Shown here in pieces: positions 441-31,380 of a stretch of DNA of 32,000 nt. Source of the DNA: Hymenobacter fodinae (lineage in GTDB: Bacteria > Bacteroidota > Bacteroidia > Cytophagales > Hymenobacteraceae); NCBI RefSeq assembly GCF_004745825.1, contig NZ_SRLA01000005.1, positions 97,106-129,105 of the forward strand, written 5' to 3'. Made by a program: the position numbers and the translations under genes. Numbering within the stretch: the first letter of the stretch is position 1; the number at the start of each line of letters is the position of its first letter. Below the pieces are notes generated by a model, which saw only the letters and a program-made list of their open reading frames with translations, did no database searches and had not been told where the DNA came from.

Positions 441-755
441 ATGGCCCGCCCTCCGAAAAAGATTTCCGAAAAATTTTCGCACATCGAGCGCACGCCGATG
501 ACGGAAGCTGCGTGTCGCAAGCTGCAGCGGCAGGCAGACCGGCTTACGGGCGGCAACCGCTCGGCGCTGGTTCGCAGCCGGATTGATGACCCCTACGGCG
601 CGGAGCTGGTGTGTCTGATAAACGAGTTGGCGCTGGCTCGGCAATCGCTGGATAAAGCAGACATCGGCAGCCTGCTGAAAACCGAGGTAGCGCTCGACCT
701 GCAGAAGCTGGCGAAGTATGGAATGGAACTGCTAAGCCATGCTGCTAAAAGGTAA
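441..755 (+). CDS. relaxosome accessory protein, RHH/MobC-like (putative)
   Basis: 104 aa. The N-terminal basic segment followed by a helix (KFSHIERTPMTEAACRKLQRQADRLTGGNRSALVRSRI) resembles a ribbon-helix-helix. It overlaps the start of the downstream relaxase gene by 17 nt. Confidence 0.45.
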   Translation: MARPPKKISEKFSHIERTPMTEAACRKLQRQADRLTGGNRSALVRSRIDDPYGAELVCLINELALARQSLDKADIGSLLKTEVALDLQKLAKYGMELLSHAAKR

Positions 756-1485
756 CACCCGTGGGGCAGGGAGTTGGGCCGAGTACCTGTTCAAGAACAC
801 GAACGACCGCGCCCAGGTGCTGGACATTCGCGGCACCAGTTTTCCTGACAGCCTCGCGCAGTCCATCTTGGAAATGTCCTTAACCGGCGCGCAGGCGGGC
901 AGCACCAAACCCTTTATGTCGGTGTCGATCAATCCGTCGCCGGGAGAGGACCGGACCATGACCTATGAGCAGTGGCTACGCAGCGCCGACATTGCTGAAA
1001 AGTGGTTGGGGCTGGAAGGCCAGCGGCGCTTTGTCGTGCTGCACGAGAAGAAGGGCAAGGACGGCGAGCCGCGTACCCACATTCACGTCGGCTGGGAGCG
1101 CTACAGCCGTGAGGATGGCAAGCTGATCTCGGATAGCCATATGCGGCACAGGCTGGTGCAGGCCAAAATCCAGATGGAGCTGGAGTTCGGCCACAAGCGC
1201 ACGAAGGACTATGACCGGCAGCACTATGCCATAGCCAAACGCATCGAGGCCGAGTTAGAGGCTCAAGGCCGCATGGCCAAGCGGGAGGTGGCTGACCGGT
1301 TTGCCGAGAACAGCCCGGACATCAGCAAGCGGGAAACGACCCGGCAGGAGCGGGTTGACCGGGTAGCCAGGCTATTTTCTGACAACGTGCCTGATCCAGC
1401 TGACAAGGAAAGCAACCTGCGCCGGATACTGGAAGATCAGGAGAAGCGGGACCGGGAGCGCGATCAGGGCCAGGAACCTGATTAG
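739..1485 (+). CDS. minimal MobA/VirD2-family relaxase (mobilisation nuclease domain)
   Basis: 248 aa. The N-terminus LLKGNTRGAGSWAEYLF has the G-rich loop plus Tyr typical of Pfam Relaxase (PF03432)-type proteins. A histidine cluster EPRTHIHVGWERY is present, followed by a charged C-terminal tail. Confidence 0.6.
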   Translation: MLLKGNTRGAGSWAEYLFKNTNDRAQVLDIRGTSFPDSLAQSILEMSLTGAQAGSTKPFMSVSINPSPGEDRTMTYEQWLRSADIAEKWLGLEGQRRFVVLHEKKGKDGEPRTHIHVGWERYSREDGKLISDSHMRHRLVQAKIQMELEFGHKRTKDYDRQHYAIAKRIEAELEAQGRMAKREVADRFAENSPDISKRETTRQERVDRVARLFSDNVPDPADKESNLRRILEDQEKRDRERDQGQEPD

Positions 1486-21360: not shown

Positions 21361-22632
21361 TTAAACCCCGTGCAAGACGGCTCTTTGGACGCCACGCCCA
21401 CGGATCGGGTACCGCTGATTGATGAAATAGCCCTGGGCATCAGGCGGGTGGTCGTGGCCGGTGCTTTTGTCCGGCTCGCCGTTCTTGTCGTAGGCCTGCT
21501 GCTCCAACGCCTCCGTCAGGCGCGGGCACTGATCGGTGTTGACCAACCAGCGGCGTTCGCCCTCACCGTTCAGGATCATAGCGTTCATAGCGTTGACCCG
21601 ATCCTTTACGGCCGGATTGGTGCTGTTGACGATGACGGTGAACCGGTTCTGGCGCAGGATGGACAGGTCGCTTTCCGAGGCGTTCACCGACTTATGCGCC
21701 TGGCCGCTGGCGTCGGGGTACACGGTCATGCTGTGGTCCGGGTAGCGCTCCCGCAGCATCCGCGCCATTGTTGGCGTATCGCGCACGCCGGTCAATTCGC
21801 CTACGGTGCGAGGCCAGCCGTCGCGGATCACGTTGATGATGGCCGTCATGTTCAGCACGTTGAAGTCCATGCCTATGTGCAGCGGCTCACGCGGGCGCAT
21901 GGTGTCGTTGGTATGGTTCAGGCGCCGGTCGAAGCTGGCATATACCGAGCCGGAAGCCAGGTTGACGAATTGGCCGCGCAGGTAGGCATCGATCAGCTGT
22001 GGCGGGTAGGAGGCGAACAGCGAGGAAATGTAATCGTCCGGCAGGTTGATGGCGTTGTCGTAGGTGCTGGCCTGCACCATGCCGTACAGGTCACGAAGCG
22101 CTGGCTTTTCGCGCAGCTGCTTGACGAACTGGTTGTAGACGAATTTGAAGCCCTCGGGCGTCGTGGTGACGGAAATGCCGTTGACCAGCCCTGGCACATT
22201 GTAGCGCATCCGGGCGATGATCTTGCGCCAGGCGGTTTCCGCCTTGTCGATCTTCATCACGTCCAGCTCGTCAATCAGCGCCTTGCCGATCTTGAAGCCC
22301 ACGATGTCGCCGGGCTTTTCCATCGACCGGCACAGAATGGTGCCGCGGTACTTCTTGCCCGAGTACAGGGCGACTTCCTTGTTGCTGAGGTGGATTTTGG
22401 TGGTCAGGCCCCACTCGGCGGCGACTTCCTCGATCGTCGGGTAGAAGATGTCCCGGATCTGGCCGTAGGTCGGCGCGAAATAGCCGGAGTTGATGCCGGG
22501 GAACTCCATCGCGTGCTTGCACAGGTCGGTGCAGCCCACCCACGTTTTGCCCGAGCCGAAGCCTGCCACGAAAGCCTTGAACTTGTGCGGCAGGCGGATG
22601 AACTCGAATTGCGGCCTATTGAGGTTCGGCAC
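21361..22632 (-). CDS. terL: terminase large subunit
   Basis: 423 aa with a Walker A-like motif (FVAGFGSGKTW) near the N-terminus and a downstream nuclease-domain-sized region. It overlaps the TerS gene by 17 nt. Confidence 0.9.
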   Translation of the reverse strand: MPNLNRPQFEFIRLPHKFKAFVAGFGSGKTWVGCTDLCKHAMEFPGINSGYFAPTYGQIRDIFYPTIEEVAAEWGLTTKIHLSNKEVALYSGKKYRGTILCRSMEKPGDIVGFKIGKALIDELDVMKIDKAETAWRKIIARMRYNVPGLVNGISVTTTPEGFKFVYNQFVKQLREKPALRDLYGMVQASTYDNAINLPDDYISSLFASYPPQLIDAYLRGQFVNLASGSVYASFDRRLNHTNDTMRPREPLHIGMDFNVLNMTAIINVIRDGWPRTVGELTGVRDTPTMARMLRERYPDHSMTVYPDASGQAHKSVNASESDLSILRQNRFTVIVNSTNPAVKDRVNAMNAMILNGEGERRWLVNTDQCPRLTEALEQQAYDKNGEPDKSTGHDHPPDAQGYFINQRYPIRGRGVQRAVLHGV

Positions 22633-23598: not shown

Positions 23599-23713
23599 GG
23601 GATAATTTGCTGAAAACAAACACAATGGTCATCATTGTGTCTGCGTTCTAGGCAGTTAGCGCCTATTACATCCACTATTGCCGTATAAGGTTTAATTAAT
23701 AGATTGCGCGTCA

Positions 23714-24475
23714 ATGGAACCCCAGGCACACATCATCGAGCTGAAATTCGAGGGCAATGGCATCAAGCCCTCGAAAGTGAAAGCCAGCGAAGTGGCAGAG
23801 CTTATCATGAGCTTTGAAGGGGCCATCATGTCGGTGATGAAGCAGCAGCACGCCAGTGTCAGTGACACGGAGGTGTTTATCAGCTTCGAGGAAATCAAGG
23901 ATCAAAGCCTTAGCCTCAAGTGCCTGGCCAATAAGGCGAGGGAATATGTGTTCCCGGCGTTGCTGGCTATCACAACCTCGTTTTCCAACAATGCTTACTC
24001 GGGTCTGCCTTCGGGCGCGATCGAGGACCTAAAGAAGATTACCAAGTTCGCTCGGCGCCATGAGTGCGATGGGGTATGGATCCAGGATGGCGAACGCGTT
24101 GCCAGCTTCGACAAGGACACGGAGATCAACATCTCAGAGCAAGAGTTCCTGCGCGGCGATACCACGATTTATGGTCAGGTATTGAAGGCCGGCGGTGACA
24201 ATCCGCGTGTAACGCTCAAGATTGACGACGACTATACTGTCAGCTTTGACGTGCAGCGCGAGATAGCCATCAAGTTGGCTAGCAACCTGTACAAGGAAGT
24301 CGGCATGACAGGAAACGCACGCTGGCACCGGAAAACCTACAAAGTGGTTGATTTTCGCCCAGAGCGTTTGATTTTCATTGAGCAGGCACCCTTGACCGAC
24401 ACATTCAATCAGCTCGGCAAACTGTTTGGCGGCAGTTTAGAGGCAACCAACACTAAAAGCCTTTATCTCGACTAG
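23714..24475 (+). CDS. hypothetical 253-aa protein, partner of the PIN protein (no recognised domain)
   Basis: Clean ORF on the strand opposite to the phage backbone, in a region of intermediate GC. An in-frame TAA lies 7 codons upstream of the ATG, and no SD is present. The stop is 5 nt before the PIN gene ATG. Confidence 0.6.
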   Translation: MEPQAHIIELKFEGNGIKPSKVKASEVAELIMSFEGAIMSVMKQQHASVSDTEVFISFEEIKDQSLSLKCLANKAREYVFPALLAITTSFSNNAYSGLPSGAIEDLKKITKFARRHECDGVWIQDGERVASFDKDTEINISEQEFLRGDTTIYGQVLKAGGDNPRVTLKIDDDYTVSFDVQREIAIKLASNLYKEVGMTGNARWHRKTYKVVDFRPERLIFIEQAPLTDTFNQLGKLFGGSLEATNTKSLYLD

Positions 24476-24480
24476 ACGCT

Positions 24481-25167
24481 ATGGGTAAGCTTGTAATGAT
24501 CGACAGTCAGATCTTCATATGGGGCATCAAGGGCATGGCTTCTGAGGGGCAAGAGTTCCGCATTGGCCCAGCCCAGCGCTTCATACAGTTTCTGGATGAC
24601 GAGAAAAGCAAGCTCCTGTTGCCAGTCCCGCAGATGGCCGAGTTGCTGTCTTGCGTGCCCCCTGATCAGCAGGTAGAGATCAAGCGCTTTTTCGATAAGC
24701 GGTTCCAGGTCCGGCCTTTTGACGAGCTGGCTGCTGAGAAGTGCGCCGAGCTGCTGTATCACTCATTTAACGATCAAGAGCTAATCGAATACCGTAACGA
24801 GCATAAGGTCCCCAAGCAAAAGATCAAGTATGACTGCATGCTGGTGGCGATGGCAATCACTAACCGCGTCAGCAAGATCTACTCCGACGATAAGGACCTG
24901 AAGAAATTCGCAGCTGGGCAGATCGACGTAGTGAAGATGCCCGACATTGCCCCCGCGCCAGTACAGCAGACGTTGCAGTTTGATGGTGATCCGGATACAT
25001 GGCGCAGGAGAGCTGAACACTCAGCCGTACCTGCCACTGAGGGGGAGCCAGGCAAAGGCATTGTTATCGAGCAACGACTGGATAGGTTCATGTCGGAGAT
25101 TGCTGGTAAGCCAATTGTTTCGGGCAATCTAAGGTTTGGGGGCGATCAGGTGCCACCTCAAGCTTAG
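24481..25167 (+). CDS. PIN-domain nuclease with an approximately 80-aa C-terminal extension
   Basis: 228 aa. The N-terminal beta-strand with Asp (LVMIDSQIFIWG), a central acidic helix (VPQMAELLS), YDCMLVAMAI and IYSDDKDL match the acidic residue pattern of PIN/VapC folds. The C-terminal tail has no recognisable motif. Confidence 0.7.
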   Translation: MGKLVMIDSQIFIWGIKGMASEGQEFRIGPAQRFIQFLDDEKSKLLLPVPQMAELLSCVPPDQQVEIKRFFDKRFQVRPFDELAAEKCAELLYHSFNDQELIEYRNEHKVPKQKIKYDCMLVAMAITNRVSKIYSDDKDLKKFAAGQIDVVKMPDIAPAPVQQTLQFDGDPDTWRRRAEHSAVPATEGEPGKGIVIEQRLDRFMSEIAGKPIVSGNLRFGGDQVPPQA

Positions 25168-25422
25168 GAGTAAGAGGGAGGGGAGATCGCGTTTTATTCA
25201 AAGGCCACGTAGGCGGTCTGATTGGCAGCGACGGAGGGGCAAGCCAGATGGATGCCCAGCGAATATAGGTAATGCCTTTGCTGTTGGGGCGTTCCTTCTA
25301 AGGGGGGAATTCGCTGTGCGCTATGCAGTTACGAGCTATTTTCAAAGGGGCTGGATTAGCTACTAAACTATTTAGTAAGTTTGCGATTGTGGCTATGTAG
25401 CCCCAAGGATGGCATATATAAA

Positions 25423-27510
25423 ATGCCATTGTTTTACAAAAAGCAGCTTGCAAAACGCGACATGAGCGAGGATTTAGTTCAATCGGCGACACATCAAATT
25501 GGTCACTACGGATATATCCGGCTCGGCTCAACTCGATTAAGTCAATTAAAGCGCAGTAAATATATTCAAGGCAAACTTGATATTGCTGACGAAGCCCGCA
25601 AACCCGATGGTATTGTTTTTCTTCCCAGCGGTGGGATAAAGGCTGTAATTGAGGTTAAGCAGCCAAAGGAATTAGTGGCAAAAGAACTGCCATCTGTTAT
25701 TGATCATTACAGCCAAATTGCCAAAGCTGTTTGCAATGTGTTGATTATTACGGATGGAAAAAATTCATACTGGATCAATCCACACACAAAAGAATATATA
25801 AAGGATGAGACAGGTCACGATATAAGCTTACTATTTGATCCTAAAGCGATCGAAGGTAAAACGCTTTCGCTAGAGAAGGCGAACAAGATTTCCTCGTTAA
25901 TTGAGCAGGCCGCGTTCTGTATTAACGAAACAAATAATCATATCACCCCGCTCAATGTTATCGATCCGAGCGGATTAGCACGAACTGTTTGGCAAAAAAT
26001 TTGGATTAATACCGGTAAAGAGCCTGAAAAATGTTTGTATAATGTCGTTGAGATATTTCTCTTTAAATTTCTCAGCGATACAGGCGTTTTGATTGGAAAT
26101 TATGGTTTTCAGCGTGTTCTTGATCTGATCATCAAGGATGGTCCGGTCGATGCGCTAAACCACTATGCCAATATTTCAAGGAAGAAGATTAAGGCTCTTT
26201 TCCCTCCAGGCACGGACAATACCACCGTTATCAACGGCACTATCTTCGTCAACGAGCAGGGCGACCCCAACACCTCGCAGGCAAGTCTTTTTGCCGAGGT
26301 CATTCAGCTGTTCCAGAACTTCGATGACAAGCATGGCTCCATGCGCCATATCAACCGGGAGTTTAAGACCCGTCTGTATGAGTCGTTCTTGCGTCAGGAG
26401 GCAGGCGTAAAATCGCTAGGCCAATATTTTACCCCGCGAAATGTTGTGCAGGCAGTCGTTAAAATGTCCAGCGCATCGTCACTCAAGGACGGCGCCAGGA
26501 TCTGCGATCCATTTTGCGGTGTGGGCGGCTTTGTTTTGGAAACAATAGTCGAAAACAAGAATATTTTCAATCAATATACGCCGAGTAACGGCAAAATTGA
26601 GCCTAAAATTATTCTAAAGGGGTACGACAAAGGTTCTGACGAAAAAGAAGATGAGCGTACAATTATATTGGCCAAGGCCAATATGCTCATTTATTTCTCT
26701 GACCTGCTGGCGCAATACAACAGCGAGGCTCACCTCAAGGAGTTTTCTGAAAAAGCATTTAATGCTGTTTTTGAATTGCTGAGGTCTAATCTGGGAACAT
26801 TCGGCCGTCACGACGATGAGCCATATGATCTGATATTGACTAATCCTCCCTATGTAACGAGCGGATCAGCAAGTCTTAAAAATTCAATCGAGTTTGGTGG
26901 TGCAAATAAATTCCTGCCATTAGGTCGTGGTACGGAAGCCTTGGCTATTCAATGGATCGTTAATAACCTGAAAGTAGATGGTGAAGCATTGGTTATTATT
27001 CCTGATGGTTTGCTTAACCAAGCATCTATTCTCAACTACCTGACAGAAAACTGTTTCATTAGAGGGGTCGTCGCTTTGCCAAGCCGTACTTTCTATTCAA
27101 CACCCAAGAAAACATATATTCTTGTTATAAATAAAAAGGAGTCGAAATCCGACATTCAAGAGGAACCTGTATTTACATACTTGGTTTCCGAGATTGGCGA
27201 ATCACGAGATGCTAGACGGGTGCCAATTAAAGACAATGATTTGACGGAAATGGAAATGCTATTCCGACAGTTCAATGCGACACGGAAGACCTTTGTTTCA
27301 TCATCTCCACGTTGCAAAGTTTTCGATTTTGATGTTTTCAAAAACAGCAAAAATTGGCTGATCGACCGTCTCTGGACGAAAGACGAAAAAAAGGCGCTCG
27401 GTATTGTTGATGAGCGGGTCGAGGTTGATGAGGCTGGCTTCCTTGCATTGGCTAAAGAAGCAAATGACGAGATCCAAAAGTTTTTGACGACTTACAATGG
27501 CAACTCTTAA
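25423..27510 (+). CDS. fused restriction endonuclease (PD-ExK) and N6-adenine DNA methyltransferase; BcgI-A-like Type IIB R-M subunit
   Basis: 695 aa from ATG 25423; a TTG at 25381 is also in frame. N-terminus: KPDGIVFL...AVIEVKQ (PD...ExK). Middle: HsdM_N-like EKCLYNVVEIFLFKFLSD. MTase motifs: GQYFTPR (X), DPFCGVGGF (I) and LILTNPPY (IV). GC is low, roughly 40% by eye. Confidence 0.8.
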   Translation: MPLFYKKQLAKRDMSEDLVQSATHQIGHYGYIRLGSTRLSQLKRSKYIQGKLDIADEARKPDGIVFLPSGGIKAVIEVKQPKELVAKELPSVIDHYSQIAKAVCNVLIITDGKNSYWINPHTKEYIKDETGHDISLLFDPKAIEGKTLSLEKANKISSLIEQAAFCINETNNHITPLNVIDPSGLARTVWQKIWINTGKEPEKCLYNVVEIFLFKFLSDTGVLIGNYGFQRVLDLIIKDGPVDALNHYANISRKKIKALFPPGTDNTTVINGTIFVNEQGDPNTSQASLFAEVIQLFQNFDDKHGSMRHINREFKTRLYESFLRQEAGVKSLGQYFTPRNVVQAVVKMSSASSLKDGARICDPFCGVGGFVLETIVENKNIFNQYTPSNGKIEPKIILKGYDKGSDEKEDERTIILAKANMLIYFSDLLAQYNSEAHLKEFSEKAFNAVFELLRSNLGTFGRHDDEPYDLILTNPPYVTSGSASLKNSIEFGGANKFLPLGRGTEALAIQWIVNNLKVDGEALVIIPDGLLNQASILNYLTENCFIRGVVALPSRTFYSTPKKTYILVINKKESKSDIQEEPVFTYLVSEIGESRDARRVPIKDNDLTEMEMLFRQFNATRKTFVSSSPRCKVFDFDVFKNSKNWLIDRLWTKDEKKALGIVDERVEVDEAGFLALAKEANDEIQKFLTTYNGNS

Positions 27511-28585
27511 AAATTTCGCGGTAGAGGAGCTTTTCACCCCAACACGCGGAAAAAGCAAATACACCCGTGGCTATGCAGATAAGCATCCGGGTGAGTACCC
27601 CGTGTATTCTGCAGCCTTAGAGGCGCCACTTTGCTACATCGACCATTACGATTACGATGGGACCTATTTGACATGGACTGCCAATGGCTATGGTGGCCGT
27701 ATTCAGATCAAATCAGGGAAGTTTTCAATCAACGGTGACCGCGGCATTCTTATTCCGGTTAATGAGGATCATCCCAACCTGGATTACATCAAATATTTCC
27801 TGCAACCTGTTCTGATCGGGCAAGCTGTCGGTAGGGTCGTTGACGGTAAAAAGAACGAGTACACTAAGGTCGGCCCAGAGGTTGTGGCCAACTCGATCAT
27901 CACTCTGCCGGTTAATGAAGAGGACAACATAGACCACGACGCCATCCACGAGAAAGGCGAAAAGATCAAGCAGATACTCGCTCTTCAAGACTCGATGAAG
28001 AAGCAAGTCGAGCAACTTGACGACGCAGAAATTGTGATTGAGGTCAATGAGCCTAGCAAAACAATCAACCTTGGAGACACGCAGTATTTCACGCTTTCTA
28101 TCGGCGACCGGGTGCTGATAAAGGATGGATTGGGCGAGGGTGTACCGGCTTATAGCGCCAATGTAAAGGTGCCAATAAGCTACATTGCTGAATCCAACCT
28201 CTCTGATTTTGATAGACCATCAATCCTTTGGGGAATTGATAACACACTCTTTTTTTATAATATAATTCCTGAAAATGTCGTTTTCGCAACGACAGATCAC
28301 TGTGGAAGAGCTTTAATCAATGTTCCCGACTTAGATGCAGAGTACGTTTACTACTACCTGCAAGCTACCAGGCTGGAGTATGGTTTTGATCGCGTGTTTC
28401 GATCAAGCTTGGAAAACATGCGGAGTATCGTAGAAATAAAGGTGCCGCTTGATGAAAAAGGTAATTTTTCATTGAAGCGACAGAAAGAAATTGCTGAACG
28501 TTACAAAAGGGCAAATGCTCTTAAGGAAAGCATCATAGAAAAGCTTGATGTCTTGCAGAGCGTTGCCGTAGACATAAATCAGTAG
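27497..28585 (+). CDS. HsdS-like specificity subunit (BcgI-B-like), two target-recognition domains
   Basis: 362 aa. The start overlaps the upstream gene by 14 nt. There are two TRD-sized halves, each followed by a helical conserved spacer (KIKQILALQDSMKKQVEQL and KRQKEIAERYKRANALKESIIEKLDVL). Confidence 0.8.
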   Translation: MATLKNFAVEELFTPTRGKSKYTRGYADKHPGEYPVYSAALEAPLCYIDHYDYDGTYLTWTANGYGGRIQIKSGKFSINGDRGILIPVNEDHPNLDYIKYFLQPVLIGQAVGRVVDGKKNEYTKVGPEVVANSIITLPVNEEDNIDHDAIHEKGEKIKQILALQDSMKKQVEQLDDAEIVIEVNEPSKTINLGDTQYFTLSIGDRVLIKDGLGEGVPAYSANVKVPISYIAESNLSDFDRPSILWGIDNTLFFYNIIPENVVFATTDHCGRALINVPDLDAEYVYYYLQATRLEYGFDRVFRSSLENMRSIVEIKVPLDEKGNFSLKRQKEIAERYKRANALKESIIEKLDVLQSVAVDINQ

Positions 28586-30490: not shown

Positions 30491-30545
30491 ATTATCGTTT
30501 CGTGCGAAAATAGTTGTTGACCCGCGTCGCATTTCGTGCGAATGT
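30491..30545. promoter_or_regulatory. divergent early promoter region with two copies of the operator-like near-palindrome TTCGTGCGAA
   Basis: TTTCGTGCGAA occurs at 30498-30508 and 30532-30542, with TTCG/CGAA as half-sites. Minus-strand promoter: TCAACA, 18 nt, GATAAT (30496-30491). Plus-strand -35 is TTGACC (30517-30522) with a poor -10. The two -35 hexamers overlap back to back. Confidence 0.4.
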
Positions 30546-30574
30546 CAATCATCAACAGCGAACAGGAGCGCGTG

Positions 30575-30739
30575 ATGTCGGGACGATTAGAAGCCATTTA
30601 CGACTGCATCAAAGCAATCGAGGGCAAGGAAGATTGTCAGACAGCTACGGGCTTTTTGAGAACGCTGGCGATGAAAGAGGAAGCAATCATTGCTCGTCAA
30701 GAGCAGGAATTTATCACACAGGTATATGGAGACCGTTGA
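30575..30739 (+). CDS. small hypothetical protein (54 aa)
   Basis: ATG at 30575 with GGAG 7 nt upstream. The stop overlaps the Erf ATG as TGATG. The longer ORF-track versions (30514 and 30536 starts) lack an RBS. Confidence 0.45.
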   Translation: MSGRLEAIYDCIKAIEGKEDCQTATGFLRTLAMKEEAIIARQEQEFITQVYGDR

Positions 30740-31380
30740 TGTCAGGAGAAAATCACGTTTACAAGGCTATTGCCGATGTTACAGCGGAAATGTCCAAGGA
30801 GGGCATTGCCAAAGGGCGTAAAAATCAGCAGCAGGGCTATTCATTCCGAGGCATTGACGAGGTGTTGAATGCCTTGTCTCCGGTATTGTCTAAGCACAAG
30901 TTGGTTATCCTGCCTCGGATGACCGAGCGCGAGTGTGTTGAGCGGCAAAGCAAAAATGGAGGGGTGATTTTTTACGTCACCGTGAAGGCAGAATTCGACT
31001 TTGTCAGCGCCGTCGATGGATCGAAGCATACAGTATCGACCTATGGCGAAGCAATGGACAGCGCTGACAAGGCCACCAACAAAGCTATGAGCGCCGCCTA
31101 TAAATACGCTGCCTTTCAGACATTTTGCATCCCGACTGAGGGCGACAATGATGCCGACGCGACAACACATGATGTCGCTCCGAAGGTGCCGCCCGAGAAG
31201 CTGACAGCTGAGCGCAAGGAGTTCATCGTCAAGATGCTCCTTGAAGCTGATACGCCCGAAAAATTGAAGGCTATCAAGGACCAGGCAAAAGCCGAGTGTC
31301 AAAGGTTTGGTGACGAAGCAGCCTACAAAGAGATCATCAACGCCGTCAAAGCGGCAAAAACCAAGAAAGAGAGCAAATAA
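30739..31380 (+). CDS. erf: ERF-family single-strand annealing recombinase
   Basis: 213 aa from ATG 30739. QQGYSFRGIDEVLNALSPVLSKHKL...YGEAMDSADKATNKAMSAAYKYAAFQTFCIP matches the ERF superfamily pattern. The 288-aa ORF-track version has an implausible N-terminal extension. Confidence 0.75.
   Translation: MSGENHVYKAIADVTAEMSKEGIAKGRKNQQQGYSFRGIDEVLNALSPVLSKHKLVILPRMTERECVERQSKNGGVIFYVTVKAEFDFVSAVDGSKHTVSTYGEAMDSADKATNKAMSAAYKYAAFQTFCIPTEGDNDADATTHDVAPKVPPEKLTAERKEFIVKMLLEADTPEKLKAIKDQAKAECQRFGDEAAYKEIINAVKAAKTKKESK

Follow-up and report, generated by a model that had tools for sequence, protein, structure and literature searches.

What do two adjacent genes in a prophage of Hymenobacter fodinae encode, of which the second is a PIN-domain gene and the first belongs to no described family? 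The genes, here termed A and B, lie on a 32,000-nucleotide (nt) stretch of contig NZ_SRLA01000005.1—hereafter the window, within which positions are counted. We hold, with moderate confidence, that A and B together make up a toxin–antitoxin-type module of two genes that is self-contained and spreads horizontally, and in which a PIN effector is combined with a new kind of partner. This reading is built on the gene structure, the PIN fold and its catalytic residues, the oligonucleotide/oligosaccharide-binding (OB) fold of A, strict synteny, co-evolution, and mobility; from these we infer physical binding of A to B, toxicity, neutralization, a substrate, and a trigger. The two genes are the following:

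23714-24475, plus strand: gene A, ATG start, 253 amino acids (aa); protein of an undescribed family and obligate partner of the PIN gene
24481-25167, plus strand: gene B, ATG start, 228 aa; PIN-domain protein, VapC-like

Both genes had been proposed as a candidate system in a first reading made from the letters alone (the sequence-only reading), and its coordinates, strands, and starts stand: the genes are co-directional, the spacer between them is 5 nt (ACGCT), and both start codons are backed by the N-termini of homologues. The same reading had suggested coupling, partly from a missing Shine-Dalgarno sequence. None is seen upstream of B in the window sequence, which has little meaning because the host belongs to the Bacteroidota, a phylum that seldom uses Shine-Dalgarno sequences. 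The coupling itself is upheld by the conservation of the pair, since in 22 of 32 pairs the end of A and the start of B share 4 nt or 1 nt.

Homologues of A are numerous. A profile search over 1.84 billion cluster representatives (50%-identity clusters) yields 1,200 representatives at E<=1e-3, of which 816 also reach E<=1e-10; almost all measure 250-270 aa. Loci with both genes come from three phyla—Bacteroidota, Gammaproteobacteria, and Cyanobacteria. Named hosts of the A family are Hymenobacteraceae, Chitinophagaceae, and Sphingobacteriaceae, and further Methylomonas, Microbulbifer, Teredinibacter, Zhongshania, Thiodiazotropha, Kentrum, and Synechococcus. The sequence-only reading had named co-occurrence of the two families as its own test, and they do co-occur: a B-family PIN gene lies immediately 3' of A on the same strand in all 46 entries where A is full-length and sequence follows it, and B again follows A directly in all loci collected later (L052-L060). 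The profile hidden Markov model of B scores these paired loci with E values of 1e-35 to 1e-83. A occurs without B only as truncated remnants (L010, L047/48) or at contig ends. Pairwise distances among A proteins and among B proteins are correlated with r = 0.94 (0.90 within one clade), a value reached in none of 2000 Mantel permutations. The pairing is far above chance, and the two genes are conserved, coupled, and co-evolving. No third recurrent gene and no small DNA-binding antitoxin was found near the pair by all-against-all BLAST of neighbors and Pfam searches of 118 neighbors, apart from an IS1595-family transposase. As a separate observation, a non-coding motif GTTAGCT...TCGAGA...ATG is located ~10-35 nt upstream of A in L024, L026-L029, and L031 (also in L019, L030, and L036); these loci are of the gammaproteobacterial type with proteins only ~50% identical, and the motif may be a promoter or a regulatory site.

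The protein B has an identical NCBI entry under the name "type II toxin-antitoxin system VapC family toxin", and its AlphaFold2 model places it among the PIN nucleases with a VapC-type structure. Its core features are:

24481-24954, plus strand: PIN core, aa 1-158, from the AlphaFold2 model and conserved columns
24502-24504, 24640-24642, 24832-24834, and 24889-24891, plus strand: acidic PIN residues D8, E54, D118, and D137, respectively, from the alignment

The predicted local distance difference test (pLDDT) of the model exceeds 90 over aa 1-160. The top 19 Foldseek matches in the PDB are all VapC or PIN structures: the best is VapC15 of Mycobacterium tuberculosis (4chg_A, E 1.4e-5, template modeling score 0.73), the highest template modeling score, relative to the target, is that of the Shigella VapC (0.78), and VapC20, VapC26, and VapC11 follow. 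The acidic residues that the sequence-only reading had picked out coincide with conserved columns in an alignment of 30 B homologues: E54 and D118 never vary, and D8 and D137 are each kept in at least 90%. A precomputed match to the Pfam PIN family (PF01850) is carried by 16 of 31 B homologues. B of the window matches phrog_21691 at 1.5e-14 and scores 13.2 with the NCBIfam VapC model, the threshold of which is 80.

The protein A has a 100% match in H. fodinae, a hypothetical protein. That A belongs to no known antitoxin or regulator family, as the sequence-only reading had supposed, agrees with every family search made: A has no ribbon-helix-helix (RHH), AbrB, helix-turn-helix (HTH), or other match in Pfam, NCBIfam, or PADLOC, a profile search with A among PDB sequences returned no match, and A together with 63 diverse relatives matches no Pfam antitoxin or DNA-binding model and no significant NCBIfam family. 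The sole Pfam matches among these 64 members are weak ones to DUF3465 (2 of 64, E 1.7e-3), and phrog_19868, a phage family without an assigned function, is matched by 59 of the 64. Matches of A to RimP, LAPAL_fam, and CsrA were rejected as weak, non-significant noise. Weak NCBIfam matches among the 64 members, eight to the "LAPAL motif-containing putative phage structural protein" (best E 1.3e-3) and three to CsrA, are probably noise as well.

These searches bear on the reading of A-B as an ordinary VapBC system with an antitoxin of an already described family, for which the NCBI name of B and the order of an antitoxin-like gene before a toxin gene would speak. However, with neither A nor its relatives assignable to any such family, and no OB-fold partner of PIN toxins described in the literature searched, this reading was rejected and its probability is close to negligible.

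The AlphaFold2 model of A has a mean pLDDT of 81.9 and features two domains, followed by a helix and a tail:

23714-24109, plus strand: N-terminal alpha/beta domain, aa 1-132, order b-a-b-b-a-a-b-b
24146-24379, plus strand: C-terminal OB fold, S1/IF1-like, aa 145-222, order b1-b2-b3-helix-b4-b5, AlphaFold2
24392-24472, plus strand: C-terminal helix (aa 227-242) and acidic tail, AlphaFold2 model; candidate toxin-neutralizing segment

The N-terminal domain carries the conserved residues G14, P19, E35, and S65 and has no PDB structural relative among the top Foldseek matches. The second domain is modeled as a barrel of five strands with a helix between strands 3 and 4, in line with the OB-like C-terminal half surmised from the letters alone. 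Its Foldseek matches in the PDB are mainly OB folds (best E 2.6e-4) and comprise the large subunit XseA of exonuclease VII, IF1/eIF1A, the N-domain of LysRS, RPA32/14, and Stn1/Ten1. The most conserved residues of the family—G148, T150, G160, G161, P164, Y193, G200, A202, and W204—are all situated in this domain. The OB segment is not consistently basic (isoelectric point 8.2 in the window, family median 6.9), and A matches no curated S1, CSD, or tRNA_anti family of Pfam. The tail is net negative throughout the family (median charge -4.2), and an Arg near the C-terminus (R252 of member P0202) is invariant within the gammaproteobacterial and cyanobacterial group.

Among viral models, the best structural matches of A span most of the query and are uncharacterized phage proteins, one of them annotated as DUF6575. 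The structural match of A in BFVD is probably a 381-aa protein of Leptospira phage LE1 (L051, 38735-39880, minus strand). This protein lies directly downstream of a DUF4365 (nuclease-like) gene (39883-40413, minus strand) and beside an MmeI-type restriction-modification enzyme (40635-43418, minus strand), a layout analogous to that of the window. The LE1 protein stays a structural lead only, because it has no sequence similarity to the A profile.

The single recurrent neighbor of the pair is the IS1595-family transposase gene, which stands divergently upstream of A in eight Bacteroidota loci and is so common because the pair is transposon cargo. Terminal inverted repeats of the form GGTAAC/T-n-ATATA-nn-AGTTGGGACAAA enclose transposase, A, and B in six distinct loci, and in four of these an 8-bp target duplication flanks the element:

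L002, 7812-11372: IS1595 element, target duplication ATAATTTT
L005, 4456-7451: IS1595 element, target duplication GACGCAAC, perfect 50-nt repeats
L007, 3958-7323: IS1595 element, target duplication TTATTTTA
L055, 5187-8696: IS1595 element, target duplication TAAAATTA

The loci L056, L057/58, and L059 feature inverted repeats without target duplication. The pair is, often so in Bacteroidota, the cargo of transporter insertion sequences (ISs) of 3.0-3.6 kb. Passenger genes are known from some elements of the IS1595 family (PMC3129680, citing Siguier 2009), and PIN toxin–antitoxin pairs are known as passengers of Tn3-family transposons (Lima-Mendez et al. 2020, PMC7157771). The elements of L002, L007, and L055 also carry extra unannotated open reading frames (ORFs) of 223-248 aa, and that of L059 bears small HTH_3 and RHH_5 genes.

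The window copy has neither a transposase nor flanking IS1595 inverted repeats and is not located inside a transposon. Its DNA similarity to the nearest relative comprises exactly 23714-24942, ending at B residue 154. The module moves as a unit; with similarity confined to the two ORFs and with no transposase or repeat, the window copy is a bare two-gene prophage insert of distinct G+C content (GC). The GC of the pair is ~0.50-0.55, between the ~0.60 of the phage structural and late genes and the ~0.44 of the downstream methylase and specificity genes, and thus intermediate, as described before.

Two natural variants are found among the transposon-borne copies. L055 and L056 are copies of the same element and differ by one base in the start codon of B (ATT in L055, ~7770, versus ATG in L056, ~4700), with B otherwise intact. 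The loss of the start codon in L055 may represent silencing of a toxin, and it fits expectation if B is costly. In L057/L058 (3508-3993), A is cut to 161 aa (profile positions 97-253, that is, OB fold and tail) beside a truncated transposase and an intact B; this short-A arrangement is present on 22 contigs.

A non-toxic role is conceivable for such cargo: the pair could be a two-subunit housekeeping or transposon-accessory nuclease, in which A binds the substrate and B cuts it during RNA processing or transposition. OB and S1 domains commonly bring substrates to nucleases, and the only recurrent neighbor is a transposase. Yet IS1595 elements generally lack the A-B genes, the gammaproteobacterial and cyanobacterial copies, like that of the window, are without transposase, the pair is patchily distributed, spreads by horizontal transfer, and has no conserved place in the chromosome, and the arrangement is typical of toxin–antitoxin operons, so that we regard this role as very improbable. 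As for the toxin–antitoxin reading, the status as transposon cargo suits protection of the lysogen no better than it suits a selfish addiction module.

The sequence-only reading had further ascribed to B an extension behind the PIN domain. The extension exists; it is no conserved domain but a variable disordered tail, of which only a six-residue motif at its start is kept:

24964-24981, plus strand: motif QQTLQF, aa 162-167, in a flexible low-pLDDT segment directly after the PIN core
24982-25164, plus strand: variable disordered tail of B, aa 168-228, not alignable, pLDDT 42-63

With about 70-80 aa behind the core, the tail is predicted to be disordered and is not conserved; among B homologues, its length ranges from 0 to 72 aa and no alignment is possible. 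The family pattern after the core is Q-x-x-[LMF]-x-[LF] or Q-x-x-L-F, which 45 of 58 distinct B proteins possess; 500 shuffles of the tails gave 5.1 on average and 11 at most. In many homologues, the pattern forms the extreme C-terminus. Six Bacteroidota B tails (5 of 30, plus that of L056) end in acidic D/E-x-P-F: P0028, P0030, P0039, P0044, P0047, and L056 B (DDLPF, DEDLPF, DDTPF, EESPF, GEAPF, EETPF). These tails are acidic and otherwise unalignable, and B of the window has no such ending. We take this ending to resemble the C-terminal tip of the single-stranded DNA-binding protein (SSB). As far as its letters go, the Q-x-x-L-x-F motif resembles the motifs that bind the beta sliding clamp, quoted as QLxLF and QLxLxL (PMC4564189); its second position, unlike in the quoted consensus, is rarely Leu.

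From these likenesses, a nuclease directed to the replisome or to single-stranded DNA could be drawn up, a reading we consider unlikely. B would be tethered to the sliding clamp by Q-x-x-L-x-F, some B variants would be held to SSB-interacting proteins via the SSB-like acidic tip, and A would be an OB-fold binder or sensor of single-stranded DNA; the pair would act on the replicating DNA of invaders, or as a clamp-directed toxin, and not as a VapC-type ribonuclease (RNase). The enrichment of the motif across phyla, at or near the C-terminus of B and in a flexible segment, suits such a tether, but the motif could equally be a docking peptide for A, and motif resemblance is all that this reading is founded on. 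Likewise, the OB matches of A include the single-stranded DNA binders XseA, RPA, and Stn1/Ten1 but also the RNA binders IF1, eIF1A, and the anticodon-binding domain of LysRS, and the closest structures of B are RNA-cleaving VapC toxins. SSB genes lie near the pair in L059 and L060, which may be coincidence, and the SSB-tip likeness concerns a minority of tails. More doubtful still is the wider proposal of a mobile nuclease class, in which a replisome-addressed PIN protein of the VapC fold would be gated by an OB-fold reader of single-stranded DNA or RNA and would have spread with IS1595 elements and prophages through at least three phyla. If true, a replisome-addressed PIN protein would constitute a replication-coupled toxin or defense mechanism new for PIN/VapC proteins.

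In the toxin–antitoxin reading, B would be a VapC-like PIN endonuclease serving as effector or toxin, and A its cognate partner, translated from the shared message immediately ahead of B. Most likely, A binds B and holds it inactive. Inhibition would proceed via the C-terminal half of A, whose acidic helix and tail may block the acidic PIN active site; alternatively, the OB fold of A may grip the Q-x-x-L-x-F peptide of B. The acidic tail, the invariant Arg, and the natural short-A variant together suggest that the neutralizing function resides in this C-terminal half. Loss or titration of A would release B, which would cut nucleic acid—expected to be RNA by analogy with VapC—and bring growth to a stop. 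Release could be caused by loss of the element, by failing host expression during phage infection, or by a ligand competing for the OB fold. As a result, the carrier element, be it an IS1595 transposon or a prophage, would be stabilized, and phage infection might abort. VapBC-type systems share with A-B the patchy distribution and the association with mobile elements (prophage, IS1595 transposons, islands, three phyla); what A lacks is the small antitoxin format with an N-terminal RHH, AbrB/SpoVT, Phd/YefM, or HTH domain.

The regulation of the module is probably unlike that of classical VapBC, because no operator is evident and A has no DNA-binding domain. One candidate site is present upstream of A in the window:

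23620-23640: perfect 8-bp inverted repeat ACACAATG-N5-CATTGTGT, 74-94 nt 5' of the A start codon

The repeat sits in an AT-rich gap, where the GC falls from 0.6 to 0.45, and is a weakly indicated candidate for an operator or hairpin that may be foreign to the module. Other loci yielded no comparable palindrome ahead of A, nor any conserved one, and the RNA fold of 23620-23640 is no better than that of shuffles. A search for an RNA antitoxin or tRNA gave no Rfam or tRNA match in the window.

In the window, the pair is surrounded by phage and restriction-modification-like genes:

21361-22632, minus strand: large terminase (Terminase_6N/6C), left of the pair
25381-27510, plus strand: N6_Mtase-domain protein of 709 aa, N6_Mtase at aa 331-638
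27497-28585, plus strand: Methylase_S specificity subunit of 362 aa, overlapping the methylase gene
30514-31380, plus strand: ERF-family recombinase, right of the pair

The late phage genes to the left are on the minus strand and the methylase and specificity genes to the right on the plus strand. The ERF recombinase indicates that the prophage extends rightward of the pair; with the terminase on its left, the pair is therefore located inside the prophage, between late and early regions. B ends 213 nt upstream of the co-directional methylase and specificity genes. The methylase possesses an N-terminal region of ~330 aa with a PD...EVK-like motif (PDGIVF...VIEVKQP), no separate HsdR is encoded in the window, and the two proteins presumably resemble a BcgI-like type IIB restriction-modification system. 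A protein with a MobA/VirD2-like relaxase domain (739-1485, plus strand), encoded at the left end of the window, possibly belongs to a second mobile element.

The sequence-only reading had placed the pair in a defense-type island and proposed a sensor or regulator A that controls an RNase B, with toxicity and abortive infection as outcome. As a general feature, the island setting does not hold. A restriction-modification system adjoins the pair in only 2 of ~25 distinct contexts, and this linkage is therefore not defining for the module. The roles proposed for A and B, and the toxicity and abortive infection, remain putative. At other loci, the pair is found in a toxin–antitoxin islet between alaS and lysC (Methylomonas, L012), in a resolvase-bearing remnant (Sabulibacter), near helicase, NERD, and transposase genes (Microbulbifer, L019), and, in Synechococcus sp. 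CS-1325 (L016, 1-16774), after a type ISP restriction-modification enzyme in a dense toxin–antitoxin and defense island with HicB-like, MNT-HEPN (several copies), PLD-helicase-DUF3427, HNH, MazEF, HigBA, and BrnT genes.

A dedicated anti-phage system, in which the OB fold of A would sense phage nucleic acid or protein and free or activate the PIN effector for abortive infection, is a possibility to be reckoned with, if not a likely one; it corresponds to the sequence-only reading, with defense in place of addiction as the main function. The position of the window pair between terminase genes and a methylase–specificity pair and the Synechococcus and Microbulbifer neighborhoods argue for it, whereas most other contexts are not defense islands, no PADLOC match exists, and the transposon-cargo status equally suits selfish maintenance. 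The best full-length structural matches of A are phage proteins, and DUF6575 is listed among new defense domains (Vassallo et al., PMC9519451); however, the tie to DUF6575 consists of a single Foldseek match with a root-mean-square deviation of 12 Å and no sequence support, and may serve as a lead for A and not as a classification.

Several observations weigh against the toxin–antitoxin reading. The Pfam PIN model (PF01850) hits B of the window below its cut-off (E 3.6e-4, 21.6 bits against 23.6 bits). A is ~3 times the size of a typical VapB and has no recognizable DNA-binding domain; for these reasons, and because no operator is conserved, classical autoregulation is not evident. The tail motif of B and the SSB-tip-like endings are not explained by a simple VapBC model. 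Many neighborhoods consist of plain housekeeping genes, and A and B gave no match in PADLOC-DB v2.0.0 at E<=1. Neither A nor B was matched in GenBank phages or PLSDB plasmids by megablast or tblastn, and scans of IMG/VR with both profiles returned nothing with the patterns used.

No description of the A-B pair was found in Pfam, NCBIfam, PADLOC, or the searchable literature on PIN proteins with OB-fold, S1, or clamp partners. Of the known systems, VapBC (VapBC15 of M. tuberculosis, VapBC/MvpAT of Shigella) is similar in the downstream PIN nuclease with a D-E-D-D acidic site and VapC as best structural match, in the bicistronic order with the partner gene upstream and ORFs overlapping or nearly so, and in the patchy, mobile distribution. 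In contrast, A has ~255 aa instead of the ~70-90 aa of the antitoxin and an OB fold instead of an RHH, AbrB, Phd, or HTH domain, and the PIN core of B exceeds that of VapC by ~25 aa, with a conserved linear motif C-terminal to it. If the B motif binds the clamp, the SocAB type VI system of Caulobacter would be similar in logic only, combining a clamp-motif toxin with a partner that does not bind DNA. SocB is no nuclease, SocA is a ClpXP adaptor, and neither is related to A or B in sequence or fold.

In the NetFlax network, PIN/VapC-like toxins combine with many unrelated neutralizing domains, and some of them act in phage defense (Ernits et al. 2023, PMC10440598). A-B follows the same principle of a PIN toxin with an unrelated partner domain, whereas none of the partners named in the passages covered—PanA, PerlF, RHH_6, SpnP2/DUF2080, and SynP1—has an OB fold (PMC10440598). 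The Tn3-family toxin–antitoxin passengers (PMC7157771) and the IS1595 transporter ISs (PMC3129680) resemble the transposon-borne copies, in which a PIN-effector pair lies beside a transposase. Unlike the Tn3 passengers, A-B is carried by an IS1595-family element, A belongs to a new family, and the window copy is outside any transposon. PIN-like nucleases tied to restriction-modification genes (Matelska et al. 2017, PMC5499597) recall the position of B before the methylase and specificity genes of the window and of the Synechococcus pair after the type ISP enzyme, and differ in that such linkage is the exception for A-B.

If confirmed, the toxin–antitoxin reading would give the VapC/PIN toxins a further, widespread partner family, whose ~1,200 clusters are now carried only as "hypothetical protein", and would show control of a PIN nuclease without a DNA-binding antitoxin. 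A clear instance of IS1595-family transposons carrying a toxin–antitoxin-like module would be gained as well, with a bearing on the persistence of small transposons. The tail motif poses the question of whether a PIN toxin is directed to the sliding clamp or, instead, to the OB-fold protein paired with it. The pair could be recognized automatically in annotation and is relevant to prophage-encoded defense in Bacteroidota, whose defense systems are little studied.

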